From an uncultured bacterium (GTDB lineage: Bacteria > Muiribacteriota > Ozemobacteria > Ozemobacterales > Ozemobacteraceae): a DNA stretch of 43,181 bases. A model generated the notes under the pieces. That model was not told the DNA's origin, ran no database searches, and saw nothing but the letters and a program-made list of their open reading frames with translations. Positions 4,250-31,545 of the stretch are shown here, in pieces; the first letter of the stretch is position 1, and the number at the start of each line of letters is the position of its first letter. The stretch lies in NCBI GenBank assembly GCA_964428355.1, contig CAYRYU010000004.1, positions 131,261 through 174,441 of the forward strand. Direction: 5' to 3'. The position numbers and the translations under genes are program-made.

Positions 4250-6511
4250 TCAGAAGAGAGGTTTGAGCCACCCCATCTTGGAAATGAGCTTGATGAGCCA
4301 GAGCTTCTTGGCCCCCTGGACGTCGGCAGGCCCGAATTCAGGGGAATCCGCCGTGGCGAGATGGTACTCGACCGACTTCGCCATATCGGAGAAGATCTCC
4401 TTCCGCAGTTCCGACGCGAATTCATCGGATTTGATCATGGCCACAACCTCGGAATTCACCTTCTCGCTCAGGTAGTCGAAGTTGTAGGTTCCGACCAGAC
4501 CGACCTTTCCATCGAAAACGAAGTTCTTCGCATGGAGTTGGCCTTCGTTCACGCGAGCGAAAAGCCGGCAGGTTGGCATGTCCTTCAGGTAGGTCCGCCA
4601 GTCGCGAAGGAGCATCGCCTCGGTGGGGAAGCTGTCGGAGGTCTGGGGGCTGTTGGTGTGGATATAGATGGGGACGCCCCGCTTCGAAGCTCGCTTCAAA
4701 GCGGCTTGCGCCCTGGGAGTCAGAACGATGTACGGGTTCTGGATGATGATCTCTTTCCGGCTTCCGTCGATGAACCTGACGATGCTTTCGGTGATGTCGT
4801 TCCGGGGGCCTGACAAGGAATGCTTGTCGAGTATCTGGACCGGAGCGTCATAGGCGTTCGAAAACGGGTCGAAGGCTGGAAAACCAGTCATATGCCTGTA
4901 CTTTGTCAGTTCCTTGTTGTATCTGGTCACTCCGGGTTCGATGTCGTCGGGGACCTTTTTTGCGTCGAGGACTCCCTGGCCGTGGAGGTAGAGGTCCATG
5001 GAATAACCGGCGGCTTCCATCTCCCATCCGTAGGATTCGGTGCCTCCAAGGAACGCCTTTTTCACCTTGAAGGCTTTCAGGAGCTGGAACTCCTCGGTGA
5101 AGGCCGTCTCCATTTCCCGGGCCACTTCCTCGCTGTCGATCACTACATCGCAATCACGCCAGGCTTCAGGGTCGTCGATGGGATCGACCAGGTACTCGTT
5201 GGCGATGTTCCGTCCCCCAATGATGGCGAATCTTCGGTCGACTACGATGATCTTGTCGTGGTTGCTGGAAATCACCCTGCGAAGGTCGGTCAGCAGCAGG
5301 GCGATGTTGGTCTCCATCGGGTTGTAGATCTTGACCTCGACATTCCCCCGCCGTACCAGCTCCTGGAGGAAGTCCTGGGCCCAGAATCCCAGGCTGAACT
5401 TGTTGGACCCGCGGCAATCGATCATCAGACGGATCTTCACGCCCTCGTTTGCTTTCTTCAGGAGCAACCCGAGCAGGGAGGTTCCGAATACATCGTTATC
5501 GATGATGAAGTAGGTCATATCGATGGTGCTCTGGGCGTCGCTCAACAGCTTCCAGCGGGAGTACCAAGCCTCGTAATTCTTGTAGACCAACCTTACCCTG
5601 GCGTTGTCATCCGGGGGCCCGCTTGCGATGCGGGCGGCATACTGGTCGAAGATTTCCTCGGGGGGAGGTGTGAAAGGCGCTCCCAGGGCTTCATAATACA
5701 GTTCGAAATCCGCTTCGTCGTTCTGGGCCCTGAGGAAGGCGATCGATTTCGCGAGGTAGGTGGCCCACCGGACCATTTTGACGGGAGCCAGCAGCCAGGA
5801 GGTGTCCTTGTATTTCCTGTAGGCGGCATTCATTTCCTCGAACTTCTGGGAAAGGGATTTCTTCCATTTGGTCCGGTCTCCGAAGGAGCCCAGATACTTG
5901 ATCCGGAGGTTCGCATAGATTCCGAAACGTCCGGAGTTGGGGTCGGCTGCAATCTCCTTGTAGAGGGCCAGGGCCGAGGCCTGGTCGTTCCTGAGCCGTT
6001 CGTAGGCCTTCGCCAACTCGTATTGGATCTTGCTCTTGTCAGGACAGTTCGGATTCGCCTGGAGATAGGACTTGATCTGGATGAAGATCGAATCTGCATA
6101 ACTTCCCGCTCTTTCGCTCTTGAGGCAGTCGATCAGGGGCTGGATGTCGGGAGTGAACGTGGCGTTGTCGGAATAGGGGTCTGTCATCGGTTGGGCGGTG
6201 GTTAGCGGGGGAACGGTCAAAGATGAGGAAACGGCTCCGGAGGAGGTGGTTTCCGGAAGGGTAGAGGAAGCAGCACTCTTCGACGGATTCCCGGGAAGGG
6301 TGCCGACATAGGTGTCTTTTGCGACAGAATAAGCCTGACGCGCCTTTTCCACCTCGCCGGCCGGTTTCTGGGCGGTTACCGCCTCCTGGTAGGCTTTGTA
6401 CGCAGCAAGATACTTCTGGTAGGCGGAATCGGTCGTCTCTGCCATCGCCCCCGAAATGCAGAATGCGATCAGCAAAAGAACCAAAACCAGCTTTCTCCGG
6501 ATTCGATTCAT
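4250..6511 (-). CDS. secreted phospholipase D superfamily protein with two HKD motifs and N-terminal helical/TPR-like region
   Basis: HxKxxxxD motifs SNHDKIIVVDRR and LHAKNFVFDGK...GTYNFD; signal peptide MNRIRRKLVLVLLLIAFCISGAMA; start chosen at second ATG (6511, GGGGG 5 nt upstream) rather than ORF-track 6535. Confidence 0.85.
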   Translation of the reverse strand: MNRIRRKLVLVLLLIAFCISGAMAETTDSAYQKYLAAYKAYQEAVTAQKPAGEVEKARQAYSVAKDTYVGTLPGNPSKSAASSTLPETTSSGAVSSSLTVPPLTTAQPMTDPYSDNATFTPDIQPLIDCLKSERAGSYADSIFIQIKSYLQANPNCPDKSKIQYELAKAYERLRNDQASALALYKEIAADPNSGRFGIYANLRIKYLGSFGDRTKWKKSLSQKFEEMNAAYRKYKDTSWLLAPVKMVRWATYLAKSIAFLRAQNDEADFELYYEALGAPFTPPPEEIFDQYAARIASGPPDDNARVRLVYKNYEAWYSRWKLLSDAQSTIDMTYFIIDNDVFGTSLLGLLLKKANEGVKIRLMIDCRGSNKFSLGFWAQDFLQELVRRGNVEVKIYNPMETNIALLLTDLRRVISSNHDKIIVVDRRFAIIGGRNIANEYLVDPIDDPEAWRDCDVVIDSEEVAREMETAFTEEFQLLKAFKVKKAFLGGTESYGWEMEAAGYSMDLYLHGQGVLDAKKVPDDIEPGVTRYNKELTKYRHMTGFPAFDPFSNAYDAPVQILDKHSLSGPRNDITESIVRFIDGSRKEIIIQNPYIVLTPRAQAALKRASKRGVPIYIHTNSPQTSDSFPTEAMLLRDWRTYLKDMPTCRLFARVNEGQLHAKNFVFDGKVGLVGTYNFDYLSEKVNSEVVAMIKSDEFASELRKEIFSDMAKSVEYHLATADSPEFGPADVQGAKKLWLIKLISKMGWLKPLF

Positions 6512-6645
6512 AGAAACCCCCGACAGATCGGACATTTATCAAATTGTACTCACGGAAAGGGGAAGTGTCCAGCCCATGGGTATGGGACCATTGGAGGAGG
6601 GACGAAGAACCGGTTTCGAAAGAGGGGTGTGAAAACCTGGTCGGG

Positions 6646-9600
6646 TCAATCCCGAAATCGTTCGAGAATGACGAAAGCGGGGACGCGGATCTTTCCTCCG
6701 ACAAGGGGTTTCCGCTTCCATCGGGGGGAAAGAGATTTTTCCGTGAGTGGGCAGACCACAATTCCGGGCCCAGGGGCGGATTTCGTCGCCTTTTCCATCT
6801 CCGCCGAAAGGTTAACCGTTGGACCGGTGACCGTGAAGTCCTGGCGTTGACTCCCTCCTCCAAGGACTCCAAGGATGGTTCGGCCCGATCCGATTCCAAC
6901 ACCTATCCTTATCGGGAACTCACCTCTTCCCTCACGTTCCTCGTTGAACTTTGCGACTTCGGAGAGCATATTCCAGCCTGCCTGGGCGGCTCTCTCGGGT
7001 GCGGGGGGCCGCCCGTGAACAGGGAGGAAAACAGCCAGGATCGCGTCCCCGATGAACTTGTCGATGGTTCCGCCCTCACCTTCGATAACCGGTTCCATTC
7101 GAGTCAGGTACGCGTTGAGCATTCCCACGATCTCTTCGGGGGCTTTTTCCTCGGACATGGACGTGAAACCTCTGATGTCCGCCGTCAGGATCGTCGCATC
7201 GACCTTGGTCGCTTTCGGCTCCCCCCCCCTCGCGATCGCATCCATGGTCAGATCAGACAGGAAGCGGGACAAAAACTCCTTCTCGCGAAGCCCGTCGGCC
7301 ATCGAGTTGAAGGAGTTGCACAGATCTCCGATCTCATCTTCGGTCAAGGCGGGAAGCCGGGTGGTCTCCCCGCCTTCCAGGAGGTTGCCTACCCCTTCCT
7401 GAAGGGAACGGACCGGTCGGAGGAAAAAACGGGAGAAGATGAAAGCCATCAGGACAATTATTCCGACGGGATACAGAACGACTGCGTTCGAAAGTAAGGC
7501 CCCCCATGGTTTTCGGGTCCCCCGAGGATCGGGTCTTACCGAGAATGCGACGAACCCCCAATCTTTCAAGGCCCTGCCGAGAAAAATGTGGGGTCTTCCC
7601 CCGACGGTCAGTTTTCCCCGGATCTTCCCCCCTTTCATCGTAAGCCTTTTAAGAAGGCTCCGTATGCCGGGATGCGATTCAGCCCAGATCGGGAAGACGT
7701 TCGGGTTGTTGGTGAAGTAGGAGTTCATGAAGACGAGGGAAGGCTGCCCGTTTGCCAGAAAAGGTGATTCCAGGAGGGCCTTCCGCATTTCTGAAAACTC
7801 CGCCTGCCTTCTCGCGAAATTGGCCATAACGGCAAGAGGGATCTGGAAATCCTTGGAAAAAAACGTATGGAAGAAGGTCCATGTGTTTTCATGGAGGATC
7901 TGCCAGGAGTTGATCCGATCTTGGGAAAGCCATGTCTTGAGCAGTTGCATCGGATCGAACGATTGTTCGATGGTCTCGAAAACGAGGTCATCGGTAGCTT
8001 CCTCGCCGTGACCTGATTTCACTGGCCGGTCGGAATCTTTTCGGAACCTCAGACTTCGTCCAAGTTTTGCAAGGAACCGGGAAAAGAACCGGTCGGTTTT
8101 TTCAACCTGCTTTTCGTTTTCCTTCGTGGTGATGACCCTGATCGGAACCACGGGCTGGGAGGGAGGGATCAGGAAAAGCCTGTTGACATCGCCTGATGCC
8201 AGCTCGGGGATGATCTTATCCGTGAAACTTGCTGGTGGAAGCCCTTTCACCCAAACCGGATCGGATAAAACCTGCTTCAGAAGCGATACCCGGTCACTGA
8301 GACTTTTTTCCCTCACGTTCTCGAGGTTCTGGAGATCCGCCTCGAGAGAACGGAACTCCTCCATTACCGAAACATCCGAATCCCAGAGCATGCCGGAAAC
8401 CGATGTCCAGCCAAGGCCAAGGGTGGGTGCAATGCAGGTCAGGAGGCTTAGAAGAAGGAACTTGACCCCAATGGAGCTTTTTGGAGCCGGAAGCATTTCG
8501 ATCGGCTTCCCTTCACCGGGAGAATCTCCGGGAGGGATCCTCCCCGGTGGCGCAACCCCGGGGGATACGAATCCGGGGGCGGGGGAAACGGGCAGTGAGC
8601 CGGATGAAGCGGCCTCTTCAGGGGGACCCGCCTTGACACTTGGTGCTCCCTTGGTACGGCCTTCAGGAGGTTCGGGGCAACTGGTAGGGGGTGAAAGCAG
8701 TTTCAGGATACCGGAAACCGAAAGGAAGAGAGATAGGAATCCGATCGCGACAGCCATGGGGGAGCGTGCGAGGCGGAAAATGGGCGGGGAAGGATCCCAG
8801 AGTGAGATGACTCTGTCCGGGTCTCCGGGCAGACCGCTGAACGCGGCCCCACCTTCCTCCGTGAAGATCTCCCCACTGGTTTCCTGGTCCAACGCCCGTT
8901 TAAAGGCTTCCCCCAAGGACCCTGGAAATCCGGGCGGAAGAGCCGGCTTTTTCCGGGTTCCCACCCAGGAATTGAACGAAAGCTGGGTCTTGTTCTTCGA
9001 AAGCGACTCCATGAACCAGTCGCCTCTTTGAAAGAAAGCCAGGGGAACCAGGATGGCGAAGGCACCACCCCTGACAAGGGGGATCTTTTGGACAGGGAAG
9101 CTCTTGTCCCGGGTCAAGTATGAAACCGGGGCGCTGACGGGGGAGCCAGGGAAAAGGGTGCCTATCAACACCATGTAATGAGTCTTTCGGAATTGGGCTT
9201 GGACGATGGAGATCGTCGATACCCCGAAGGCGAAGGGGAACGATTTGCCGAAGAGGCTTTCCAAAGCCACCGAAAAGCGGTCCCAATTCAAGTCTGACCG
9301 GGGAATCAGGAAGGAAGACCAATCCAGGATGAGGCTCAAGCATCGGGTTTCCGTCGCGTCGAGCCCCTCCTTGTCGAGGCATCCTCCTTCCCTATCCTTC
9401 AGCATGAATTGGACGTCGCTTCCAAAGGTTTCGAGAGCCCGCTTTCGGATCGTCCCCGCGGTTTCGGGGAGCAGTTCAGCGATGTCCCTGACGGTGTCGA
9501 GAAGCGTCTCGTGGGCCAGAGATTCGGGGCTCATGCGTGCTTGGAGAAGAGGAAGCAGATACTCCCGCTCCTGGGCGACGTTGGTCACTGCCACCTGCGA

Positions 9601-9705
9601 CAAGTCAGCTTCCATGGAATCCAAAAGGGACCACTCGAGCAAAAAGACGGTGATCAGAAAAACGGGAATGGCGACTTTCAGAGTCCTTTCAGTTGCCCGT
9701 GCCAT
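6646..9705 (-). CDS. membrane-bound class III adenylate/guanylate cyclase with large extracytoplasmic sensor region, Pro-rich linker, HAMP domain and C-terminal cyclase homology domain
   Basis: CHD motifs ATILTADIRGFT, KFIGDAILAVF, RIGVGIGSGRTILGVLGGG...FTVTGPTVNLSAEME; HAMP-like LTEDEIGDLCNSFNSMADGLRE; multiple TM helices; start at ATG 9705 (MARATERTLKV, GAGG 5 nt upstream), 17-nt overlap with upstream cyclase. Confidence 0.85.
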   Translation of the reverse strand: MARATERTLKVAIPVFLITVFLLEWSLLDSMEADLSQVAVTNVAQEREYLLPLLQARMSPESLAHETLLDTVRDIAELLPETAGTIRKRALETFGSDVQFMLKDREGGCLDKEGLDATETRCLSLILDWSSFLIPRSDLNWDRFSVALESLFGKSFPFAFGVSTISIVQAQFRKTHYMVLIGTLFPGSPVSAPVSYLTRDKSFPVQKIPLVRGGAFAILVPLAFFQRGDWFMESLSKNKTQLSFNSWVGTRKKPALPPGFPGSLGEAFKRALDQETSGEIFTEEGGAAFSGLPGDPDRVISLWDPSPPIFRLARSPMAVAIGFLSLFLSVSGILKLLSPPTSCPEPPEGRTKGAPSVKAGPPEEAASSGSLPVSPAPGFVSPGVAPPGRIPPGDSPGEGKPIEMLPAPKSSIGVKFLLLSLLTCIAPTLGLGWTSVSGMLWDSDVSVMEEFRSLEADLQNLENVREKSLSDRVSLLKQVLSDPVWVKGLPPASFTDKIIPELASGDVNRLFLIPPSQPVVPIRVITTKENEKQVEKTDRFFSRFLAKLGRSLRFRKDSDRPVKSGHGEEATDDLVFETIEQSFDPMQLLKTWLSQDRINSWQILHENTWTFFHTFFSKDFQIPLAVMANFARRQAEFSEMRKALLESPFLANGQPSLVFMNSYFTNNPNVFPIWAESHPGIRSLLKRLTMKGGKIRGKLTVGGRPHIFLGRALKDWGFVAFSVRPDPRGTRKPWGALLSNAVVLYPVGIIVLMAFIFSRFFLRPVRSLQEGVGNLLEGGETTRLPALTEDEIGDLCNSFNSMADGLREKEFLSRFLSDLTMDAIARGGEPKATKVDATILTADIRGFTSMSEEKAPEEIVGMLNAYLTRMEPVIEGEGGTIDKFIGDAILAVFLPVHGRPPAPERAAQAGWNMLSEVAKFNEEREGRGEFPIRIGVGIGSGRTILGVLGGGSQRQDFTVTGPTVNLSAEMEKATKSAPGPGIVVCPLTEKSLSPRWKRKPLVGGKIRVPAFVILERFRD

Positions 9706-12508
9706 TTTCCTCTTCCAATGTGAAGATCCTGACCGGTCCGGTTCGGCCTCTGATAGCCCTGAGCGGGAGATCCCGTACGATGATCCCCGGGAACTTGGGC
9801 TCGGGAACATCGATCGTTCCGAGGACCGAGGGAAGGTCGACCGTGCCCGCGAGCTTTTCGAGGCGGGCGGCCAGGTTCACGATATCGCCGATCACGGTGA
9901 AATCCATGCGCTTCTTTTCCGACCCGATATGACCTGCCACCACTGGCCCGATTCCGAACCCGATTCCATAAGCTGGAGCAGGCAAACCCAATTGGATTCT
10001 GTTTTCTCTCCACATCCTGAGGGATTCCCTCAATTCCAACGCCGCCCTTGATATCCCGGCCTCCAGGGCCGTGCTCCCCTCTCCCTGGAAAACCGCCATC
10101 ACTGCGTCTCCCAGCATCTTGTCGATCTCCCCGCCACAACGCCCGATGGCTTCCTGGCAGCGGAGGTGGAAATCGTTCATCAGCGAAACCGCCAACTCCG
10201 GTGACAACCCCTGTTCCACGTTCCGAAAATCCCTGAGGCCCGCGAAAAGGATCCCCAGTCTTTCCCGGGAGACGCTTGCCAACGGCCTCGATGAAGCCTG
10301 CCTTATGAGCTCGGGGCGGAGGAAGGATGCCATCCGCGCTTTTTGCCGAAGGCCAACGAGCATCCAGTTGAAACTGGCCCCCAGAATTCCCAGTTCGTCC
10401 TGGCTCCTGACCGGAACTCCCGCTTCATAGTCGCCTGCGTGGACCTTGCCGATTCCGCATGTCAACTCGAGCAATGGGGTCAGGAGGAACTTCCGGAGCA
10501 ACTTTCCTGCACCAATTGCCAACGAAAGCGAGGAGAAAAAGAGAATCCCGAGGAATGGAATCGCATGCTGGGAGAAGCCCTGGACCCTTCCGGCCGGCAT
10601 GACGGCGGCAGCGACCGCGTCCATTCCACCAAGGGGCCTGCAAAGGACCAGGTATTTTTCGCCCTTGTGATCGAACTGCACGCACAGAGGTTGGCGCGTG
10701 GCTTCGGTAACATCGAGGATTCCCCGGACGAAGGGATGACGGGGCATTGCCTTGGTCCCACCCTGGAACATGGCCCGGATGAACAAGCCGTTCCTTGGGG
10801 GAAGTGACCCGAGCTTCCGTTTTATCGATTCCGCGGCGAGGGTTTCGAAGGAGAATACGAGGCAGGCTAGCGACTTGACCGAACCCTGACTGTCCCGAAC
10901 CAGGCCCGGGAAAACGACCCGTTTCTGGAACCCGGTTTCCAATCTGTGGAGTCGGTTGAGGAAAGAGTCCGCCCACCCCGCGAAACTCATCAACCCCGAT
11001 TGATGGAACTGGATTGGGGTTTCCAGAGCTTTTTCCGCCGCACCGACATCGAAGGTGAGGCTCGCGAGGGTTTGGCGAAGGACGGAGAAAGCGATGGAAA
11101 TGGTGGCCGAAAACTGTTTTCGTGGAAGGGTCGTGTCCAGGATGAATTTCCCGTCCCGGAAAATCAGCGATTGTCCGATCAGGCCGATCGGTTTGAAATG
11201 GCCCAGAACCCTGTCCATATCGCTGGGAGTCCGGACGTGGGCGAGGGAAAATGAGCCAAGGATCTTCGCCAGTTCGACCTCGACTTCTGCGAAGATGTCT
11301 GAAAGCGACTTTTCGATGCTTCCGATTTCCCGTTCGAGCCGGTTTTCCACTTCCTGACGGAGCGAAAGGTGGAGCTTGAGGGACTGCCGAAGGGTGCTGG
11401 TGGACATTGCTATCAGGGGAAACCCCGCGAGCAGTACCGTTCCGAGACTGAATTTCCCAACGAGGGAAAGCTTGGAAAAAAAACCTACCCCACCAGGGGC
11501 AGCCAGGAGCAACCCTACAGCCAGGACGAACAACCAAAGGGACCCTTGCAGACCCGTCAGCAGGGCTGGAGGGTCGAGAAATCCCCGGCCGGTGCGCTTG
11601 ATTCCGACGGTGAGGACGAGGTCCGGGTCGGTCTGCCAGAATCGCGAAAGGAAAACCGAGTCGGTGGTTTCGTATACGGGACGGCCCTTGCCTAGGTTCT
11701 CCAGAAGTCCGTGCTGGAGTCCGGGGGATATCTCGCCACCTTTGACTCCTTCTCCGGTCGACTGCCAGAACGCACCCAGGGAAACCCCCGAACCCTTACC
11801 GGCCCGGAGGAAACGTTCAACTTCCCACCCTTTTCTGGCGCGAAAAAGGGGTACCAGCGAAACCAGGGAGCCGACCGGGGGAGCTTTCCCAAAACGGAAA
11901 AGGGTCAGCGAGAGGAGATAGAGCCTGCCATCGAACAGGACTTCCATCGGACCCCGCCGGCAACCTAGCAGCCATTTCGGGTCAACCAGGTCCCCCATCC
12001 GGGTTCGGATAAGTGCCTGGGCTGCATAGCGTTCGCCTGGAGAGGGTTTTCGGGAACCGGAAAGGAAAGCCTGAAACCCCTTCCAGGCCCGAATTCCCTC
12101 CTGGGGAGGTGATTCACCTCGGGGGAACACCAGATTTCCCGCGCTGTCGAACCAGAAAAACCTGGAAGTCCGGGGGAAACGCTGCATCAACGATTTCTGG
12201 AGCTGTCCTGCGGAACCCGGGTCTAGTCTTCTTCTTCTTAGGAAATTTCTCGCGGAATCTTCCCATTTCCGGAAGGAGGTCCGTATGATCTCGACCCGGT
12301 CGGACCCGCGGATCGTTTCAGTCATGAAATACTTCGCGTTGTCGATGTCTTCGGCAGCGCATTTCCCCTCGAAAACCCGCACGATGTCCACGAGAAGCCC
12401 GTTCAGAAGCCAGGCGGGGACGACAACTCCCAGAGCGAAAAACAGAAACCCCAGGAGGCGGGAAAAGGAGGCCGGGGCGGTAGAGACCTTTTCAGTCTCC
12501 CCGGACAT
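9689..12508 (-). CDS. membrane-bound class III adenylate/guanylate cyclase with periplasmic sensor, HAMP domain and cyclase homology domain (paralog of downstream cyclase)
   Basis: CHD motifs ILFAGLRDFRNVE, KMLGDAVMAVF, GIGFGIGPVVAGHIGSEKKRMDFTVIGDIVNLAARLE; HAMP LGILGASFNWMLVGLRQK; TM helices; 17-nt overlap with upstream TPR gene. Confidence 0.85.
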   Translation of the reverse strand: MSGETEKVSTAPASFSRLLGFLFFALGVVVPAWLLNGLLVDIVRVFEGKCAAEDIDNAKYFMTETIRGSDRVEIIRTSFRKWEDSARNFLRRRRLDPGSAGQLQKSLMQRFPRTSRFFWFDSAGNLVFPRGESPPQEGIRAWKGFQAFLSGSRKPSPGERYAAQALIRTRMGDLVDPKWLLGCRRGPMEVLFDGRLYLLSLTLFRFGKAPPVGSLVSLVPLFRARKGWEVERFLRAGKGSGVSLGAFWQSTGEGVKGGEISPGLQHGLLENLGKGRPVYETTDSVFLSRFWQTDPDLVLTVGIKRTGRGFLDPPALLTGLQGSLWLFVLAVGLLLAAPGGVGFFSKLSLVGKFSLGTVLLAGFPLIAMSTSTLRQSLKLHLSLRQEVENRLEREIGSIEKSLSDIFAEVEVELAKILGSFSLAHVRTPSDMDRVLGHFKPIGLIGQSLIFRDGKFILDTTLPRKQFSATISIAFSVLRQTLASLTFDVGAAEKALETPIQFHQSGLMSFAGWADSFLNRLHRLETGFQKRVVFPGLVRDSQGSVKSLACLVFSFETLAAESIKRKLGSLPPRNGLFIRAMFQGGTKAMPRHPFVRGILDVTEATRQPLCVQFDHKGEKYLVLCRPLGGMDAVAAAVMPAGRVQGFSQHAIPFLGILFFSSLSLAIGAGKLLRKFLLTPLLELTCGIGKVHAGDYEAGVPVRSQDELGILGASFNWMLVGLRQKARMASFLRPELIRQASSRPLASVSRERLGILFAGLRDFRNVEQGLSPELAVSLMNDFHLRCQEAIGRCGGEIDKMLGDAVMAVFQGEGSTALEAGISRAALELRESLRMWRENRIQLGLPAPAYGIGFGIGPVVAGHIGSEKKRMDFTVIGDIVNLAARLEKLAGTVDLPSVLGTIDVPEPKFPGIIVRDLPLRAIRGRTGPVRIFTLEEENGTGN

Positions 12509-15866: not shown

Positions 15867-17411
15867 ATGTTTTCGCTTGTCAAGAGTGGCGCAATTTCGG
15901 GGTTTGAACCGTTCATTGTCGAGGTTGAGGTCGATGTGGCGGGCGGGCTTCCGAATTTCGTCCTAGTGGGGCTTCCCGACGCTGCCGTATCCGAATCCCG
16001 GGAGAGGATCAAGGCCGCCCTGAAGAACAGCGACATTTCCCTCCCGAGCCGGAAGATCACCGTAAACCTCGCTCCCGCTGATGTCCGAAAGGAAGGAGCC
16101 GGTCTGGACGTCCCTATCGCGGTGGGGCTTCTCGTTGGATCGGGGCTGGTTCCGGCGGCAAGGGCAAAAGACTACCTTTTCGTCGGGGAGATGTCTCTCG
16201 ACGGAAGGCTCAGACACACCCGGGGAATTCTTCCTCTCGCCCTGATGGCGCGCGAGAAAGGGTTGAAGGGGCTGGTCGTTCCCTCGTCGAACGTTTGCGA
16301 AGCTGGAGTCGTCCCGGGAATCTGCGTCCACGGTTTCCGGACATTTGGGGAGCTCGTGGCAGCTCTTCAGATGGATGGACCGATGCCTTGTGATCCGGGG
16401 GAACGGCCTGTTTCGACATCCAGCATCCCATCGTTCAACCATGTCGATCTTGCAGAAATCAAAGGTCAGGCTTTCGCAAAAAGAGCCCTGGAAATTGCGG
16501 CCGCGGGGGGACACAACCTCCTGATGGTGGGCCCACCAGGTGCCGGGAAGACCCTTCTTGCGCGGGCGATTCCTACCATCCTTCCGGAACTCGAGTTCGA
16601 GGAAGCCGTTCAGGTGACAAAAATCTATTCGATAAAGGGGTTGCTTCCCCCGGGAAGCGGGCTGGTCGAGAAGCGCCCCTTCCGGGATCCACATCACACC
16701 GTCTCGGACGTCGCGCTCATCGGGGGTGGACGGGTTCCAGCTCCGGGAGAGGTTTCCCTTTCCCATAACGGGGTGCTCTTCCTTGACGAGATAACGGAGT
16801 TCAGAAAGTCGGTCCTGGAAGTCTTGCGGGAACCGCTTGCCGAGGGAAAGGTTTCGCTCGCACGGGCGGCCCAGACGAACGTTTTTCCCGCCCGTTTCCT
16901 CCTGGTTGCTGCAATGAATCCTTGCCCATGCGGTTTTGCCACGGACCCTGTCAAGGGTTGCGGATGCTCGTTGAGGCAGATTCGGGCGTACCAGCAGCGG
17001 CTGTCAGGACCTCTTCTCGACCGGATCGACCTCCAGATTTCCGTTCCCCGCCTGAAACCCGAGGAGCTCGCCCAGACCGGCCTGGGAGAAGCCTCGGTCA
17101 TTGTCCACGGGAGGGTGGCGGGGGCGAGGCAACGTCAACTCAAGCGTGGTTCCCGTGGCGAGGCCGGCCTGAATGCGCATCTTTCGGCCAGGATGATGAA
17201 GAAATTCTGCGTTCTGGACCAGGCATCGACGCATCTCCTCCTCGAAGCGGTGAGGAAGTTCGGCTTGTCCGCACGTGCCTACGACAAGATTCAGAGGGTA
17301 GCAAGGACCATAGCCGATCTTGAAGGAACCTGTGAAATCCGTATCTCACATGTTGCAGAAGCCATCCAATACCGGACCGCAGACCCCTTCCAGTCATCCG
17401 CCCAGGCTTGA
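15867..17411 (+). CDS. comM: Mg-chelatase-like AAA+ ATPase ComM/YifB family
   Basis: N-terminal Lon-protease-like domain, Walker A GPPGAGKT, C-terminal Mg-chelatase ChlI-like region; 514 aa. Confidence 0.9.
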   Translation: MFSLVKSGAISGFEPFIVEVEVDVAGGLPNFVLVGLPDAAVSESRERIKAALKNSDISLPSRKITVNLAPADVRKEGAGLDVPIAVGLLVGSGLVPAARAKDYLFVGEMSLDGRLRHTRGILPLALMAREKGLKGLVVPSSNVCEAGVVPGICVHGFRTFGELVAALQMDGPMPCDPGERPVSTSSIPSFNHVDLAEIKGQAFAKRALEIAAAGGHNLLMVGPPGAGKTLLARAIPTILPELEFEEAVQVTKIYSIKGLLPPGSGLVEKRPFRDPHHTVSDVALIGGGRVPAPGEVSLSHNGVLFLDEITEFRKSVLEVLREPLAEGKVSLARAAQTNVFPARFLLVAAMNPCPCGFATDPVKGCGCSLRQIRAYQQRLSGPLLDRIDLQISVPRLKPEELAQTGLGEASVIVHGRVAGARQRQLKRGSRGEAGLNAHLSARMMKKFCVLDQASTHLLLEAVRKFGLSARAYDKIQRVARTIADLEGTCEIRISHVAEAIQYRTADPFQSSAQA

Positions 17412-17431
17412 CCCGAAAATGGATCAACCCC

Positions 17432-17526
17432 AAAATCGGGGACATTAATTCGGGGACATGAGAATCTTTTTCCAAAAGATTCTCATGTCCCCGATTAAAT
17501 GTCCCCGATTCAACGCTCCGATTAAG
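17432..17526. promoter_or_regulatory. extended palindrome/repeat array: perfect 19-bp inverted repeat (GGGGACATGAGAATCTTTT / tcc / AAAAGATTCTCATGTCCCC) flanked by about 5 copies of AATCGGGGAC / GTCCCCGATT motif; candidate operator or structured element between comM and cNMP-binding gene
   Basis: read directly: 17452-17470 vs 17474-17492 perfect RC; outer arms 17432-17451 / 17493-17512 near-RC; additional copy CTCCGATTAAG 17516-17526; not followed by a T-run on either strand. Confidence 0.5.
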
Positions 17527-17542
17527 ATGGCCCTTTTGGGAA

Positions 17543-17571
17543 TTGACACAGGGGGACAGGATCGGTAGGAT
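17543..17571 (+). promoter_or_regulatory. sigma70-like promoter (-35 TTGACA, 17-nt spacer, -10 TAGGAT) for cNMP-binding/ATPase gene
   Basis: TTGACA 17543-17548, TAGGAT 17566-17571, AGGAGG RBS 17590-17595, ATG 17602. Confidence 0.4.
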
Positions 17572-17601
17572 GTGGAGTCAACTAGAACCAGGAGGGCATA
17601 G

Positions 17602-19047
17602 ATGAAACAATACGAATTCCTGAAAGGGGTATCCTTGTTTTCCGCCCTTTCCGACGACGAGCTGAAATCCTTTGCCGACAAGGCCGAAAACATCCAGTTC
17701 GTCCGTGATGCCATGATCTGCAAAGAGGGTCAGAAAGCTGATTCCATGTTCGTCATCAAATCCGGGATCGTCCAGATTTTTTGCGACGACGGAAAGGGAG
17801 GACGAAAGGTACTCACCCACCTGAAGCTTGGGGATTATTTCGGGGAAATGGCGCTCCTTACGGAAGAGCCCAGATCGGCCAGTGCTCTTGCCCTGGCCGA
17901 AACCGATGTGATCAAGATCAAGAAGGAGGACTTCCACAATGTCCTGAAAACCTCTCCGGAAGTCTCTCTCAGAATCATCCGGACCCTGTGCGACCGGTTG
18001 GCCAAGTCGAACATCGGCACACCGACCGAGAAGACCTACAACGTCTACGCGGTCATGGGTCCGGACACATCCTCGGGCAAGAGCATGTTCGCGCGCAACC
18101 TGGCCTTCGCGATGAGCAAGATCCTCGGAAAGGATGTCCTGGTCTACGATCCCAACCTGCGCGACGACAGGGTGGCCAAGTATCTTGGGGTCGAGCAGAG
18201 GTCCCGCATCATCGACGAGCTCGTCGACCGTGAGAAGATAACGGACATCAAGAAGTTCACGGTGAGGGCGCCATGCGGTCTCTTGACGATCGTCCCGCAG
18301 GAGAACGGTTTCACCGATCTCCGTCTGAAGGAGTTCCATACGTTTTCGATCATGAAGACGATCATGGACAGCTTCGAATACATCGTGGTCGACTCCAGCT
18401 CGATGTTCACCAAGGTCACGAAGGAGATCGTCCAGAGCGTTGACAAGATCCTCTACCTGATGTCGAGCAAGAATGTCTCCGTCGAGGGCCTCATCGACCA
18501 TTTCGAGGAGACCCGGCGTGGTTGGAAGGTCGATCCCAGCAAGGTTTTTTACGGAGTCAACCATATGACCGACGATCCCTCCCAGGAGGGAAAGATCACG
18601 GAAAAGGCCCGGTCCTTCATCAGGTTCGAGATGCCTTTCGAGAAGAAACTCCAGGGCCACCGGGACCCCGACACCAAGGTCCTGATCGAACGGGAACCAA
18701 ACAACCCCATCTCCGTCGTTGCCCGCGAACAGGCTGAAAAGGTTCTCTTCGACCAGGAGTTCGTGATCTTTCTCCCCACCTTCGCGGGAGATCCTTCCAA
18801 AGCCGACCATTCGAGACGGTGGGCGGACACCGGGGTCCAGGAGCTATCGGCGAAGCTTCGCAATGTCAGCCTGAAGGGGCCGGTAACCCACAACGGCGCT
18901 CCATGCCACCAGATATTCGGGAACGCCTCGAAGTGGTCCCTCAACCAGCAGGTCATCGCCGTTGTCGATTTCGCGAACAAGTTCAAGCAGGAGTTCCATC
19001 TCGAGAAGCTCACCTTCTCCCTCAATGGGCAGGAAAGCGTGGTCTGA
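17602..19047 (+). CDS. fusion protein: N-terminal cyclic-nucleotide-binding (CAP effector-type) domain + ParA/MinD/CpaE-like P-loop ATPase domain with deviant Walker A
   Basis: cNMP-binding signature LKLGDYFGEMALLTEEPRSASALA; downstream YAVMGPDTSSGKSMFARNLAFA (deviant Walker A of SIMIBI-class ATPases); strong RBS. Confidence 0.8.
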   Translation: MKQYEFLKGVSLFSALSDDELKSFADKAENIQFVRDAMICKEGQKADSMFVIKSGIVQIFCDDGKGGRKVLTHLKLGDYFGEMALLTEEPRSASALALAETDVIKIKKEDFHNVLKTSPEVSLRIIRTLCDRLAKSNIGTPTEKTYNVYAVMGPDTSSGKSMFARNLAFAMSKILGKDVLVYDPNLRDDRVAKYLGVEQRSRIIDELVDREKITDIKKFTVRAPCGLLTIVPQENGFTDLRLKEFHTFSIMKTIMDSFEYIVVDSSSMFTKVTKEIVQSVDKILYLMSSKNVSVEGLIDHFEETRRGWKVDPSKVFYGVNHMTDDPSQEGKITEKARSFIRFEMPFEKKLQGHRDPDTKVLIEREPNNPISVVAREQAEKVLFDQEFVIFLPTFAGDPSKADHSRRWADTGVQELSAKLRNVSLKGPVTHNGAPCHQIFGNASKWSLNQQVIAVVDFANKFKQEFHLEKLTFSLNGQESVV

Positions 19048-19071
19048 TCCGAACTTCGGAAAACCAATCGG

Positions 19072-19108
19072 GGCGCGGCATTTCGTTTGCCGCGCCTTTT
19101 TCCATTTT
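19072..19108 (+). terminator. rho-independent terminator (possibly bidirectional) between convergent cNMP-binding gene and M48 protease gene
   Basis: 9-bp stem GGCGCGGCA/TGCCGCGCC with 7-nt loop followed by TTTTTCCATTTT. Confidence 0.6.
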
Positions 19109-19132
19109 ACGGGCCGGTCCGTCTTTCGGGGG

Positions 19133-20431
19133 CTATTCCTTGCCGGCGGGTTGGGTGCCGGTCGCCTGGGAGCCGGTGCCTTGTTCGACGGAGGAGGCCG
19201 GAGCGCTTTCCAGCGCCATCCTTATCCGCTCGATCGCCGGAGGGTGGCTGTATAGCCAGAAGACCACGAAGGGGTGGGGAAGCAGGAATGCCCGGTTGTC
19301 GCGGGCAAGACGCTTTTCGGCTTCGACGAAGGCCTGGGTCAACCCGGTCAGTTCAATCGATGAGGCATCCGCCTGTCGCTCGAAGTACTGGCTGATCTGG
19401 CTCTCCACCGGAGCGGTGAAGAGGCCGAAAACGATCAGGAAAAGCGCGAACGAAGGAAGGTTCTGTGCGCTCCAAAGCGGGCCCAGGCCGAACCTCGGTT
19501 CGGACTGGACGATGGGAAAAATGTACCACAGGAGAAAAGAGCCCGCGAATGCTCCAAGAACGCCCAGGGTAAGACCCTTGAAAACGTGGTCGTGAAGCCA
19601 ATGTCCTGCCTCATGGGCGAAGATCAGCGCGGATTCGTCGACGGTGTGGCTCTTGATGAGTGTGTCGTAGAGGACGATCCGCTTTTCCCCGAACAGGCCG
19701 GTAAAGTATGCGTTGGTGTGTTTCGAATAGCGGCTTTCGTCGATCTGGTAGATCCCCTCGACAGGTATCCGGGCTTTTTCTGCAACCTCCAGTATCTTCG
19801 CTTTCAGAGGTCCGTCGGGAACAGGGGTCTGGTTGTAGAAGATGGGTGTTATCACATATGGAAACAGAAGGGTCAAGCCGACGACTATCAGTGAACTCCC
19901 TAGCGGGAAAACGATCGGCCACCACCGTTCGAAGAACCTGAAGATCCAGAGTATGAAAAGGGTTGAGGCCGAGGAGATCACGAGAGAGACTGCAAGGCTC
20001 TTGGCATACCGTACAAGCCAGTCCACAACGGTCATGTTGGAAAAACCCATCTGGGTCTCGACCACGTGTCCCAGGTAAAAGGAAAATGGAAAAGCCAAAA
20101 TCTGCCGGATAAGGAAATAGGCCAGAATGAAAAGGAGGTTCGCCTTCCAGAAACTCTCCCCCGTGTATCCGGAAATTCTTTGGTAGAGTCCAAGAAAGAA
20201 ACCGCTGTAAACAAGTACCAGCAGAACGATGGGAGTGAAGTATCCGGAGGCGACCTTGGCCCCGAAACCCATTCTGGAATACTCTTTTCCCCGATCGATG
20301 TCCTCGGCCGTGAACCTTTCCATGACGCGATCCCGGGCCGCCTGAGTAGTGTCGCCCGTCCAGGCGAGAAACAGGAGCGTCCCCCGGAGGACAGCCCACA
20401 GAATGAACAAGACCAGAAAAAATCGCGCCAT
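19133..20431 (-). CDS. M48-family (Ste24/HtpX-like) integral membrane zinc metalloprotease
   Basis: HEAGH zinc-binding motif (FAHEAGHWLHDH), multiple TM helices; start set at ATG 20431 (MARFFLVLFIL) rather than alternative TTG at 20452. Confidence 0.85.
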   Translation of the reverse strand: MARFFLVLFILWAVLRGTLLFLAWTGDTTQAARDRVMERFTAEDIDRGKEYSRMGFGAKVASGYFTPIVLLVLVYSGFFLGLYQRISGYTGESFWKANLLFILAYFLIRQILAFPFSFYLGHVVETQMGFSNMTVVDWLVRYAKSLAVSLVISSASTLFILWIFRFFERWWPIVFPLGSSLIVVGLTLLFPYVITPIFYNQTPVPDGPLKAKILEVAEKARIPVEGIYQIDESRYSKHTNAYFTGLFGEKRIVLYDTLIKSHTVDESALIFAHEAGHWLHDHVFKGLTLGVLGAFAGSFLLWYIFPIVQSEPRFGLGPLWSAQNLPSFALFLIVFGLFTAPVESQISQYFERQADASSIELTGLTQAFVEAEKRLARDNRAFLLPHPFVVFWLYSHPPAIERIRMALESAPASSVEQGTGSQATGTQPAGKE

Positions 20432-20657
20432 GTCTCCAATGAATCCTTTCAAGGTATCCGTTTCCGCATGGTTCTCACCAGATTATCACTTTGGCCTGTG
20501 ACTCCCAACGGTTTTTTTCTGACCCCGTAGTTTCCGGAAACGGGGTGGACGGAGAAGAATGAAAGTGTGCCGGGTAAGCTGGTCCCATTCCCAGTTCCAA
20601 GGTTTTTGGGATTGACAGATTCAATGATGAAGAGGGATAATTCGGGTCCGGAAAAGT

Positions 20658-27421: not shown

Positions 27422-28000
27422 TCAGTGGATGGGGACACCTAGCGAGGGGACCTGGGGGGTGAGCATTCCACCGTTAGAAGGGGAGCCCCCGACCGGTTTC
27501 TCAACGGGAAGCATCGGAACGACAGTGGTTCCCTGGCCCGTCGTGGGGTTGAGCTGGGTGCCGCCATAACCGTAGCCGTTGTTATTGTAATTGCCGTTTC
27601 CGTATGCCCCATTGTTTCCATAGTTGGCGCCCAGGACTCCATGGATGACGCCAATCAACTGGAAAAGGCGCTGGTCGACGGCGCGGAAATCCCCCATGAC
27701 CAGGTAGAACTTGGCTTTGCTGATCCTCATCTGGATCTCCTGGACGAGAGGAACGTAAGAAGCGTCGATGATGGCTTTCTTGAGGGCGGATTGGGCATTG
27801 TTGAGATGGCCAAGGGCGGAAACATTGTCGAGTACGTTCTGGCTCAGGGAAGCCCGACACATGTGGAGGTCCTGGATCACCAGTCTCAACAGGGAGATGA
27901 TCACGACATCGTTCTGATCGACCTGGCCCTTCCATTCAAGAGCCATGATCGGAGAACAAAGGATGACGGACAACGCCGCTACCAAAAGTATGCGCTTCAT
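27422..28000 (-). CDS. secreted hypothetical protein with Gly/Asn/Tyr-rich low-complexity C-terminal region
   Basis: ATG 28000 with AGGAGG 5 nt upstream; signal peptide MKRILLVAALSVILCSPIMA; GANYGNNGAYGNGNYNNNGYGYGG. Confidence 0.7.
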   Translation of the reverse strand: MKRILLVAALSVILCSPIMALEWKGQVDQNDVVIISLLRLVIQDLHMCRASLSQNVLDNVSALGHLNNAQSALKKAIIDASYVPLVQEIQMRISKAKFYLVMGDFRAVDQRLFQLIGVIHGVLGANYGNNGAYGNGNYNNNGYGYGGTQLNPTTGQGTTVVPMLPVEKPVGGSPSNGGMLTPQVPSLGVPIH

Positions 28001-28192
28001 ACATTCCTCCTGATGCCAAACCAAAATAACTCCTCCGAACAACGGAGGCATGTAATAACTATATCATACAATCCGGGGATCCGGAAGGGTACCTCGAGGA
28101 AAGATCATTTTTCGGATGGATTTTCCAAGAAGCCTCACTTGAAAAGACCAGATCCTTGGGGTAATCTGCTGTGGAGATGTGGATTTGAATTG

Positions 28193-28741
28193 ATGGAAGA
28201 ACGAAGTGCCCCGATTCCCTCTCTCCCTGTTTCACCACGAGATGACGGGGAAGATGAGCGAACATCCGAGTCACTCTCTTTTTCCCAGAGAGGGTGGATT
28301 TCTCCACAACTCGTCGCTCTTGTTTTCCTTGGCCTTTCAATTTCGATGGTAATATCGGCATATCGATCATTGGGGCGGGAATTTTCCGGAATCATCGTCA
28401 ACAAAGCCGCGGAACCAGGGATTTCCGGCTACTTCTGGCTGACCCTGGCACCCCTCGAAACGGCAGAGGTTGCCTCCGAGCCTGTTCTTACGAAGGTTCT
28501 GAACGGGGAAATGCCTTCCAGAAGGGTGGGAGTATCGAGGATGGTCTTCAACGGAGCCCGTTTGATGCAAAGCATTTCGAAAGGGTCGTTTTCACCCTTC
28601 ATTTCGATTGATGGTGAAAGATACATCGACCTGGGAGTCCAATGGCTTCTATGGGGGATTCTGGGGATAATTGTGGCGATGATTGCTTATCGCCAGGGGT
28701 ACACGGCGCATTCTCCGGAAACCCGCCTAAATAGGCGCTGA
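28193..28741 (+). CDS. hypothetical small membrane protein (2 predicted TM helices)
   Basis: C-terminal part of ORF-track 27641..28741; N-terminal part is antisense to neighbouring gene so start placed at ATG 28193; weak RBS. Confidence 0.3.
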   Translation: MEERSAPIPSLPVSPRDDGEDERTSESLSFSQRGWISPQLVALVFLGLSISMVISAYRSLGREFSGIIVNKAAEPGISGYFWLTLAPLETAEVASEPVLTKVLNGEMPSRRVGVSRMVFNGARLMQSISKGSFSPFISIDGERYIDLGVQWLLWGILGIIVAMIAYRQGYTAHSPETRLNRR

Positions 28742-30178: not shown

Positions 30179-30552
30179 TACCTTTCCGCCGATTTGCCCG
30201 ATGGCAAGTGCCAGATCGGCGTTCCTCCTTCCTGTTGCCTACGAGGTTAGCTGACGGGTTCGGAGTTTGGAAGGCCCCCTACCCTGGAGATCCAGGGATT
30301 CACCCCAAGGACTTGGGTCCCCCGCTCTTGGTGGGCAACCAAGACTCGGCAAAAAATTTGGACAGCCATTTATAACCGAAGGATTTTCATTTGTCAACAC
30401 CTTGTTTGAGATAATACGAAAACAGACGATATTCGAAGATTTGCATCAAGAAAGAAGCGGAATTTCGCCCGAGGTACGGGCAAAATCGAATCCCCTTGGG
30501 CAAATTGCTTCGAGTTTACACGTTTCTCCAAAAGAAGTGTAAAATTGGGCCT

Positions 30553-31545
30553 ATGAAGCGGGGGTATTTTTTCCTCATCCTTTTCTTTTTCACAGTCGCC
30601 CTGATGGGTGAGAATTGTCAGGCGAATGACCCGCCCCGGGTTTTTTCCCTGCAATTCGGACAGGCCAGGGGAAATGGTCAGGTCCGTTACAAGATATCCC
30701 ATGGATCCTCTGGAGTTTCGGAAAACCCGGGTTCTGGCCCAGGCTTTTTGTGGGTCGCGCCTTCAAATCAGGAGACTCCCACCCAGGTGACTCTATTTTT
30801 TCCTGCCCTGAAACCGCCCTTCGAGAGCTCTTCGAGTTTCCTGATCACAGTGGAAACCACCTCTGAAGAAACTTTCGAAGGTTTCGATCAGCCCCGGACC
30901 GGCCCCTACTGGCTGACCTTCCGGAAGAAGGACGCGGATGGTTCGGAAGAAATGGAGAGAGCATCTCCGTTGGGAGGAACGATGCGTTTGAGCCGAATCC
31001 GGAGGTCTTTTCTTCTTGCGGGAGCTTCTTTTCAAGCCCCGGAGTTCGTTCCAAAGATCTCGATTTTCTTCCCTTCCTCCACGAGACTTTTCGGGATTGA
31101 ACTGCGCATCTGTGGCGGGTTCAGGCTGAAGCAGGAGAACGAGCGAAAGATGCTGAGATCCCTTTTCCGTCACATCCTGCGGCGCATGCCCCTTCCCTTC
31201 GAGGAAGCCCTTTTCCTGGATTGGGCTCGCGGGGAGGATTTATTGCTGAATCCCGCCGAGATAGCGCTTCACCTCGTACGGATGGAGGAGTTCCGGGGGA
31301 AGTTCTTCAGTTCGGTCGGGATCCGTCGGGGATTGGCTTCCCTGTGGTTCAGGATTTTTGGGGTCCGCATTTCCCCGGGAAGATTGGAGCATCTTTGCAG
31401 AATTGTCAGGCGGGAGGGGTTTGACCAGGGGATCGAGGAGATGTTCGAGCAAAACGTTGCCGAGCTCTGGGGAAGGTATGGATATCCGGGCTCTTCTGAA
31501 GCTCCCCTGATCGAGATCCTACCGGAGGCCGGCAATGGGAAGTGA
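30553..31545 (+). CDS. secreted hypothetical protein, co-transcribed with HAMP-PP2C sensor phosphatase
   Basis: signal peptide MKRGYFFLILFFFTVALMGENCQA; 11-nt overlap with downstream gene. Confidence 0.6.
   Translation: MKRGYFFLILFFFTVALMGENCQANDPPRVFSLQFGQARGNGQVRYKISHGSSGVSENPGSGPGFLWVAPSNQETPTQVTLFFPALKPPFESSSSFLITVETTSEETFEGFDQPRTGPYWLTFRKKDADGSEEMERASPLGGTMRLSRIRRSFLLAGASFQAPEFVPKISIFFPSSTRLFGIELRICGGFRLKQENERKMLRSLFRHILRRMPLPFEEALFLDWARGEDLLLNPAEIALHLVRMEEFRGKFFSSVGIRRGLASLWFRIFGVRISPGRLEHLCRIVRREGFDQGIEEMFEQNVAELWGRYGYPGSSEAPLIEILPEAGNGK

Follow-up and report, generated by a model that had tools for sequence, protein, structure and literature searches.

A cyclic-nucleotide-binding domain fused to an atypical MinD/BY-kinase-like P-loop domain in Riflebacteria: a putative stand-alone cyclic nucleotide receptor

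Locus and features

The gene under study occupies positions 17602 to 19047 of a 43,181-nucleotide stretch of an Ozemobacteraceae genome (contig CAYRYU010000004.1, positions 131,261 to 174,441; this whole stretch is hereafter called the window). It encodes a 481-aa protein in which an N-terminal cyclic-nucleotide-binding (CNB) domain is followed by an atypical P-loop domain, related to those of MinD and of bacterial tyrosine kinases (BY-kinases), and by a ferredoxin-like domain. A first-pass annotation, made from the sequence alone, had described this product as an unusual fusion of a CNB domain, without any obvious helix-turn-helix (HTH), to a ParA/MinD-like "deviant-Walker" ATPase, and had suggested a positioning ATPase serving as receptor for two sensor cyclases encoded nearby. 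The features of the gene are as follows.

17602..19047, + strand: coding sequence of 481 aa, comprising from N- to C-terminus a CNB, an atypical MinD/BY-kinase-like P-loop and a ferredoxin-like domain; ATG start, open reading frame (ORF) exact at both ends
17543..17571, + strand: sigma-70-like promoter candidate TTGACA-17-TAGGAT; 10 of 12 consensus positions matched (consensus match only), ending 31 nt before the ATG
17590..17595, + strand: Shine-Dalgarno sequence AGGAGG, 6 nt 5' of the start codon, read directly from the sequence
17602..18012, + strand: CNB domain, aa 1-137, including the C-helix (aa 119-137)
17839..17892, + strand: phosphate-binding cassette (PBC) FGEMALLTEEPRSASALA, aa 80-97, matching the canonical consensus of PMC2246266
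18013..18039, + strand: inter-domain linker, aa 138-146, delimited by the predicted local distance difference test (pLDDT) values of the AlphaFold2 (AF2) model
18040..18750, + strand: P-loop domain of the MinD/ParA/BY-kinase superfamily, aa 147-383
18058..18084, + strand: Walker A GPDTSSGKS, aa 153-161, in which Asp155 occupies the place of the signature lysine
18136..18162, + strand: Walker A' (switch I) VLVYDPNLR, aa 179-187, with Asn185 replacing the second Asp of DxD
18379..18402, + strand: Walker B YIVVDSSS, aa 260-267, with D264, S265 and S266 invariant
18754..19044, + strand: C-terminal ferredoxin-like beta-alpha-beta-beta-alpha-beta(-beta) domain, aa 385-481
19070..19108, + strand: intrinsic-terminator-like hairpin 3' of the stop codon, with a stem of 11 bp (8 GC pairs) and a T-rich tail

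The gene is monocistronic and possesses its own promoter-like site and terminator-like hairpin, and nothing links it to the neighbouring cyclases.

Family and distribution

Among 5.8 billion proteins searched, about 57 full-length relatives with 47-72% identity and a length of 467-491 aa (mostly 481 or 483) were found, and all of those with a taxonomic name belong to Candidatus Riflebacteria, Rifleibacteriota or Ozemobacteraceae. The closest named relative stems from Ca. Ozemobacter sibiricus (69% identity), while two more full-length relatives were found at about 30% identity. Given so many relatives of near-constant length, the ORF at 17602..19047 can be regarded as no chance ORF, and the gene is conserved across Riflebacteria. 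Genome contigs were scanned for its loci using CNB-derived peptide patterns only, a scan from which neither universality nor single copy in Riflebacteria is inferable. In databases, the relatives carry generic names, i.e. "cyclic nucleotide-binding domain-containing protein", "CRP-like cAMP-binding protein" and, in a single case, "Mrp family chromosome partitioning ATPase", the latter two of which both mislead genome annotation. No curated Pfam or NCBIfam model reaches its threshold on the non-CNB part of the protein.

The cyclic-nucleotide-binding domain

The CNB domain is matched by PF00027 over aa 32-117 with 81.2 bits against a cut-off of 27.5, and it displays the eight-stranded beta-barrel plus C-helix fold. 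According to the PBC consensus tabulated in a census of the CNB family (PMC2246266), the cassette FGEMALLTEEPRSASALA is canonical; its residues G81, E82, R91 and A93 are invariant in 33 sequences, and the C-helix residues T128, L129, R132, L133 and N137 are strictly conserved. A degenerate cyclic nucleotide monophosphate (cNMP) pocket, which the first-pass annotation had considered as a possible objection, is thus not found; instead, the pocket is canonical and strictly conserved. The protein is probably a new kind of bacterial cAMP/cGMP receptor.

A match to HTH_Crp_2 or to any other HTH was not obtained in a domain-library scan of the 481-aa protein. CRP models of NCBIfam align to aa 17-136 only, and what follows the C-helix in the AF2 model is the P-loop domain, not an HTH. 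A CRP/FNR transcription factor was hence rejected, as no C-terminal HTH follows the CNB domain and C-helix. The only low-confidence stretch of the model comprises aa 137-142 (pLDDT <50), and the 9-residue linker (aa 138-146) is flexible. Overall, the fusion of a CNB domain to a domain of the ParA/MinD superfamily without HTH is real and conserved, and the strings on which the first-pass annotation had relied, FGEMALLTEEPRSASALA (aa 80-97), GPDTSSGKS (aa 153-161) and ARNLA (aa 164-168), are all present.

Superfamily placement of the P-loop domain

On the P-loop domain, the Pfam models AAA_31 (21.0 vs 27), CbiA (20.7 vs 25.4) and ParA (12 vs 27.1) all score below their gathering thresholds. The Pfam search suggested in the first-pass annotation thus bears out the CNB half of the proposed fusion, but not its ATPase half. 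The best NCBIfam matches of the single sequence are BY-kinase models rather than MinD models (TIGR03018 with 4e-11 and EpsG with 2e-7), although the TIGR03018 score of 42.5 is far below the cut-off of 230.65. Likewise, searching the PDB with the non-CNB part as single sequence yielded one marginal match, the BY-kinase BceF (6z0p, E=0.024). Significant PDB matches required a family profile of the non-CNB part made from ten family members. This profile matched FleN best, across the whole domain (E=4.8e-15), followed by BceF (2.3e-11), MinD (1.4e-8), VpsO (1.6e-8) and Soj (1.3e-5). The ParA/MinD fold also occurs among the structural matches of the domain, which hence combines this fold with significant homology. 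Structure and profiles together settle the superfamily. The ParA/MinD homology claimed for the C-terminal part accordingly holds at superfamily level, but not at the level of single-sequence Pfam thresholds.

An exhaustive HMMER scan with aa 140-481 against 1.84 billion representatives gave only 71 matches, 67 of which were domain-scanned (one close ortholog and three short fragments were left out). Between 57 and 61 of these 67 contain ParA, CbiA or AAA_31, ten a receiver, nine a cNMP domain and eight Wzz/GNVR domains typical of BY-kinases. Their motifs fall into a CpaE/MinD class with xKGGxGK[ST] and DLDLQF and a BY-kinase class with [ST]SPDxGxGK[ST] and DxDLR[RK]. The motifs of the 481-aa protein belong to the BY-kinase class with Asn in place of the second Asp, and a few other proteins share this DxNLR. 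The domain is best described, from these comparisons, as a divergent module of the MinD/BY-kinase superfamily that cannot be assigned to a named subfamily. The ferredoxin-like tail (aa 385-481) is folded and no C-terminal amphipathic helix is present; the domain anatomy with boundaries at aa 1-137, 147-383 and 385-481 is secure.

The nucleotide site

A hallmark of the ParA/MinD family is a Walker A motif of deviant form, KGGxxK[S/T], with its signature lysine (PMC11407121). Here, the P-loop reads GPDTSSGKS and lacks this lysine, as Asp155 stands opposite K11 of MinD, and a Glu is found there in the sister clade. The Walker A' motif D183-P184-N185 lies 22 residues after S161 and is invariant in all 33 sequences; in alignments, VLVYDPNLR falls on DADMR in BceF and on DAD in FleN. 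At this same position, the FleN entries 8pb9 and 8p53 read DAA where 5j1j reads DAD, presumably owing to an engineered change of that Asp. Walker B (YIVVDSSS) aligns to FIVCDSPAG of MinD and VLVVDTAAG of FleN. In sum, Gly-Lys-Ser of Walker A, the first Asp of A' and the Asp of Walker B are all retained, while the site has Asp155 in place of the signature lysine and Asn185 in place of the second A' Asp. Both of these lost residues are important, for hydrolysis in the case of MinD/ParA proteins and for catalysis in that of BY-kinases. Mg-bound waters are organised in CapB by the Walker B Asp together with both Asp of the "catalytic DxD motif" (PMC2422856). The "deviant-Walker" label of the first-pass annotation hence does not apply in its strict sense, since the signature lysine is absent and A' reads DPN instead of DxD; the site rather resembles those of BY-kinases and of hydrolysis-impaired variants.

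G159, K160, S/T161, D183 and D264 do not vary in the riflebacterial clade or in the sister clade nearest to it, and 8 of the 21 invariant columns of the P-loop domain lie within the 26 residues of the three motifs. This conservation argues for retained binding of a Mg-nucleotide in the riflebacterial protein. In more distant proteins of the same three-domain architecture (P0125, P0127, P0129 and P0141), GK[ST] is replaced by GR[ST], and A' reads DPQ, DPS, DPV or DPR. Taken together, the lineage would seem to use the MinD-like fold mainly as transducer or scaffold with hydrolysis being dispensable, and most plausibly the protein of the window binds nucleotide but hydrolyses it slowly or not at all.

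Proposed function and alternatives

The interpretation favoured here, to which about an even chance is given, is that of a soluble, stand-alone cNMP receptor with an atypical MinD/ParA/BY-kinase P-loop domain as output switch, for which we infer the allosteric part. According to this model, cAMP or cGMP would enter the canonical CNB pocket and reposition the C-helix (T128, L129, R132, L133, N137). The short linker would pass this change on, altering the nucleotide state or self-association of the P-loop domain. The latter would then act as a slowly or non-hydrolysing, ATP-dependent switch for dimerisation or partner binding, as in TadZ/CpaE or FleN, and not as a fast-cycling positioning ATPase, while the ferredoxin-like tail may add an oligomerisation or target-binding surface. 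Several points weigh against this proposal. The register of DPN versus DxD depends on sequence alignments, and a low-confidence hhalign comparison with E. coli MinD shifts the A' register by two residues, placing D183 opposite MinD D40; this comparison gave a low probability and was used for motif registration only. Moreover, some MinD/ParA members supply the key lysine from elsewhere in their sequence, which makes a real ATPase activity possible (PMC11407121), and K144 just before strand 1 is nearly invariant and thus a candidate substitute. Additionally, the Ser/Thr after the PBC Arg fits cAMP and cGMP alike, i.e. the cassette does not reveal the ligand, and the AF2 model was judged on pLDDT and pTM (predicted template modelling score, 0.73), from which inter-domain geometry is not visible.

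The positioning ATPase of the first-pass annotation would be a cNMP-gated enzyme of ParA/MinD type, forming ATP-sandwich dimers on nucleoid or membrane and placing a cargo by partner cycling. Besides the alternative lysine supply just mentioned, the ParA/MinD fold with FleN, then MinD and Soj, as PDB profile matches would fit such an enzyme, as would the invariance, within the riflebacterial clade, of Lys and Ser in Walker A and of Asp in Walker B. It is nonetheless improbable, because KGGxxK[ST] is absent, the second switch Asp is an Asn and the active site is degraded in relatives, because the C-terminus is a folded domain rather than an amphipathic helix, and because the gene has no conserved partner beside it and the window no cargo cluster. 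The kinship with BY-kinases, in turn, could point to a cNMP-regulated tyrosine kinase that phosphorylates itself or substrates once its CNB domain is ligand-bound. The top single-sequence matches (TIGR03018, EpsG and BceF 6z0p), the agreement of GPDTSSGKS and the DxxLR spacing with the motif class of the Wzz/GNVR proteins, and the likewise divergent Walker A of CapB without signature lysine all speak for it. Yet it has little chance of being right: the catalytic DxD is DPN in 33 of 33 sequences, a C-terminal Tyr cluster is missing (no Tyr after aa 317 and at most two per 15-aa window), neither a Wzz/CapA-type activator domain (no Wzz or GNVR match) nor such a neighbour nor a polysaccharide context is present, and the model score falls far short of its cut-off, as given above. 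Distant relatives, furthermore, carry Arg at the Walker lysine, and the equivalent CapB substitution K55M is inactive.

If nucleotide binding were lost altogether, the P-loop domain would be a pseudo-NTPase scaffold, i.e. only a rigid module for dimerisation or transduction that connects the CNB domain to the ferredoxin-like output. The decay from GK[ST] via GR[ST] to proteins without a P-loop (the patatin fusions described below) with the fold being kept across the wider family, as well as the loss of signature Lys and second Asp, agree with this idea. It is considered unlikely for the riflebacterial protein, as the five invariant residues of the site make up, with their motifs, a disproportionate share of the invariant columns in riflebacterial and sister clade. 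Hardly credible, finally, is a Pycsar-like anti-phage effector acting with the neighbouring cyclases and phospholipase D (PLD) protein. While the PADLOC models PycTIR and PycC match the CNB domain and the cyclases, and DrmC models give weak matches to the PLD protein, this similarity is confined to the level of domains (CNB aa 21-139; class III cyclase fold), a TIR or transmembrane (TM) effector domain is lacking, the cyclases are HAMP proteins of about 1000 aa located 5 kb away with three or four unrelated genes between, and orthologs reside in a conserved housekeeping-type neighbourhood without cyclases. A defence system of Pycsar or DISARM-like type is thus effectively refuted by synteny.

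Comparison with known systems

The closest parallel to the proposed switch is TadZ/CpaE, the Tad pilus localisation factor (ErTadZ, PDB 3fkq; Chlorobium, 3ea0), in which a sensor-like domain is placed N-terminally of an atypical ATPase whose binding of ATP serves dimerisation. In TadZ/CpaE, however, the N-terminus is receiver-like instead of a CNB domain, CpaE-type relatives keep xKGGxGK[ST] and DLDLQF instead of GPDTSSGKS and DPNLR, and the gene lies in a tad/cpa locus, whereas neither a tad locus nor pilus genes are found in the 43 kb of the window; in addition, the 481-aa protein carries its ferredoxin-like C-terminal domain in place of an amphipathic helix. From FleN/FlhG and MinD it differs by D155, N185, the missing membrane-targeting helix, an identity of only 11-20% and the absence of flagellar or division gene context around its gene, although FleN, which regulates via protein contacts, can be likened to the proposed switch. 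With BY-kinases (CapB, Wzc, Etk, BceF, VpsO), a Walker A without signature lysine and the Walker B Asp are shared, as is an A' motif about 20 residues downstream that is followed by L-R (GPdtssGKS...DPNLR compared to GPtpgiGKS...DADMR in BceF). In CapB, Walker A reads E49APGAGKS56 and the Walker B Asp is D157 (PMC2422856). Here, the CNB domain takes the place of the activator peptide or transmembrane domain of these kinases.

The same general design, a CNB domain joined via its C-helix to an output, is known from non-CRP effectors such as Bd1971 (CNB-EAL), the mycobacterial CNB-acetyltransferase Pat/Rv0998, PycTIR and the MloK1/SthK channels, whose CNB domains occur among the structural matches of the 481-aa protein; its own output differs in being a MinD/BY-kinase-type P-loop plus ferredoxin-like domain. 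Pycsar effectors, in contrast, combine the CNB domain with a TIR or TM killing domain beside a PycC cyclase, while PADLOC matches of the 481-aa protein cover its CNB part only and no adjacent cyclase exists in the window or at ortholog loci. To our knowledge, few bacterial cAMP/cGMP effectors outside CRP-type transcription factors have been characterised. The 2007 census of the CNB family lists only an "AAA_ATPase/ABC-like" group and no CNB plus MinD-like family (PMC2246266), and a literature search found no paper describing such a fusion. The architecture is hence rare in the literature, as the first-pass annotation had held, but databases do contain other CNB plus MinD-like fusions.

Among these, P0065 and L019 comprise no extra domain. 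The L019 protein of Ca. Rifleibacterium amylolyticum (match 10001-10909; 450 aa) is a CNB plus CpaE-type MinD-like protein which has kept the signature lysine (AKDGYGKT, DLDLYF) and lacks a ferredoxin-like tail; P0158 (973 aa) adds TPR repeats to an L019-type fusion, and P0120 has an N-terminal Ser/Thr kinase. With L019 and P0158 being of CpaE type, at least two different CNB plus MinD-like designs exist in the riflebacterial phylum. In L020 (Ca. Moduliflexus, 675 aa, match start 10001) and L021 (Omnitrophota, 685 aa, match start 2210), a CNB domain and a degenerate MinD-like domain are combined with a patatin phospholipase. The middle domain of L020 is homologous to the P-loop domain (hhalign probability 97.4%, E=9e-12); both proteins have lost the Walker A GK[ST] and the A' DPN, and L020 also the Walker B Asp. 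Both proteins resemble a bacterial lipase of NTE-like type whose transducer is a pseudo-NTPase.

The three-domain protein can be regarded as a variant of sensor-gated MinD/ParA-superfamily switches and of CNB-fusion effectors, and its architecture is not unique. More tentatively, and with the balance leaning against it, CNB plus MinD-like could represent an unrecognised, phylum-spanning signalling cassette, in which cNMP controls self-association of the MinD/BY-kinase fold in a nucleotide-dependent way (nucleotide-independent in degenerate members) and thereby switches diverse outputs. These outputs would then include the ferredoxin-like domain, the patatin lipases of Moduliflexus and Omnitrophota, TPR scaffolds and a Ser/Thr kinase, and the riflebacterial protein would found a new class of cyclic-nucleotide effectors with a live nucleotide site. 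A cNMP-gated MinD/BY-kinase P-loop switch, if true, would add a post-transcriptional route of cyclic-nucleotide signalling and provide a natural counterpart of receiver-domain-gated TadZ/CpaE, which opens a testable question on non-transcriptional cNMP signalling. The graded decay from GKS via GRS to no P-loop with retention of the fold also offers a ready evolutionary series of the MinD fold as transducer apart from ATP hydrolysis.

Gene neighbourhood and the cyclase question

In the window, the CNB-P-loop gene comes after comM and is convergent with an M48 peptidase gene, and a Mur ligase gene is also a neighbour; two HAMP-cyclase genes as well as PLD, TPR and DUF4855 genes are located upstream. 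Pilus, flagellar, division and polysaccharide clusters are absent from the remainder of the 43 kb, and cognate partner or cargo genes are not conserved beside the gene in the window and at ortholog loci. The M48, Mur-ligase and M16-peptidase neighbours recur in relatives' loci. Operon coupling with comM or the M48 peptidase was nevertheless discarded: at L010 (10001-11452, compared to window 15867-20452), the ortholog alone is inverted between the M48 peptidase and ComM genes, at L009 the ortholog and M48 are set apart by an insertion of five unrelated genes, an S1-P1 nuclease and a DUF1810 gene among them, and at L001 and L005 the upstream genes differ. The recurring neighbours thus appear to reflect gene order at the level of the lineage rather than operon coupling.

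The first-pass annotation had regarded the protein as plausible receptor for the product of the two cyclases and had named co-occurrence in related genomes as a check. Using a hidden Markov model (HMM) derived from the cyclase domains of the window, no cyclase was found within 10 kb at any of nine distinct riflebacterial ortholog loci, while the same HMM detected a cyclase in about 10 of some 60 unrelated CNB-protein loci taken as background. As none of the nine ortholog loci has a cyclase within this distance, the adjacency is particular to the genome of the window, and neither the co-occurrence, at the level of gene neighbourhood, nor the receptor role for these two cyclases is upheld. A different cyclase, FHA-GAF-cyclase-PilZ, is encoded 4-8 kb upstream in the sister clade (L006/L007, L008 and L017; about 30-35% identity), where genes for a Ser/Thr kinase, a protein with HEAT repeats and a VWA protein, the last transcribed divergently, also belong to the conserved upstream synteny, with MerR and a second Ser/Thr kinase downstream. 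This cyclase lends weak, independent support to a plausible, looser functional link to cNMP signalling in general, and the sister-clade neighbourhood is a candidate signalling set that could hint at partners.

The two cyclase ORFs of the window, both with HAMP and class III cyclase domains, are encoded on the - strand at 9689-12508 (upstream) and 6646-9810 (downstream) and overlap by 122 nt. The protein of 6646-9810 has kept the first metal Asp (TADIRGFT) but carries Glu at the transition-state Arg (NLSAEME vs NLTYRIE), and the one of 9689-12508 carries Gly at the first metal Asp (FAGLRDF vs FFSDIVSF) with Lys, Asp, Asn and Arg being kept. These complementary active-site defects suggest that the two proteins may depend on each other as a C1/C2-like heterodimer in which a single active site is formed; judging from the Lys, ATP would be the substrate and hence cAMP the product. 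Beside the cyclase pair, a 761-aa protein with two PLD-like domains (4250-6535, - strand) gives weak PADLOC matches to DrmC (DISARM) and MkoB, which probably reflect generic PLD similarity.

Sensors of about 960-975 aa with HAMP and SpoIIE (PP2C-type phosphatase) domains recur about 7-13 kb from the gene, namely at 31535-34405 (+ strand) of the window, at 1-2766 of L003/L004 and at 1-937 of L009, which may reflect synteny conserved in the lineage and not a link in function. Long ORFs without Pfam match at E<=1e-4 encode 550, 489, 366 and 349 aa (window 331-3636, + strand, 27422-28741 and 30496-31545). In the interval from the comM stop codon to the promoter-like site of the CNB-P-loop gene, a perfectly paired, nested double hairpin is found at 17436-17508, with an outer stem of 11 bp and an inner stem of 21 bp (free energy -56 kcal/mol, z = -10.7). 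The 11-mer ATGTCCCCGAT has four copies in the window, every one of them within this element. The hairpin is not followed by a T-tract; it may terminate or insulate comM, serve as an operator or represent a REP-like element.

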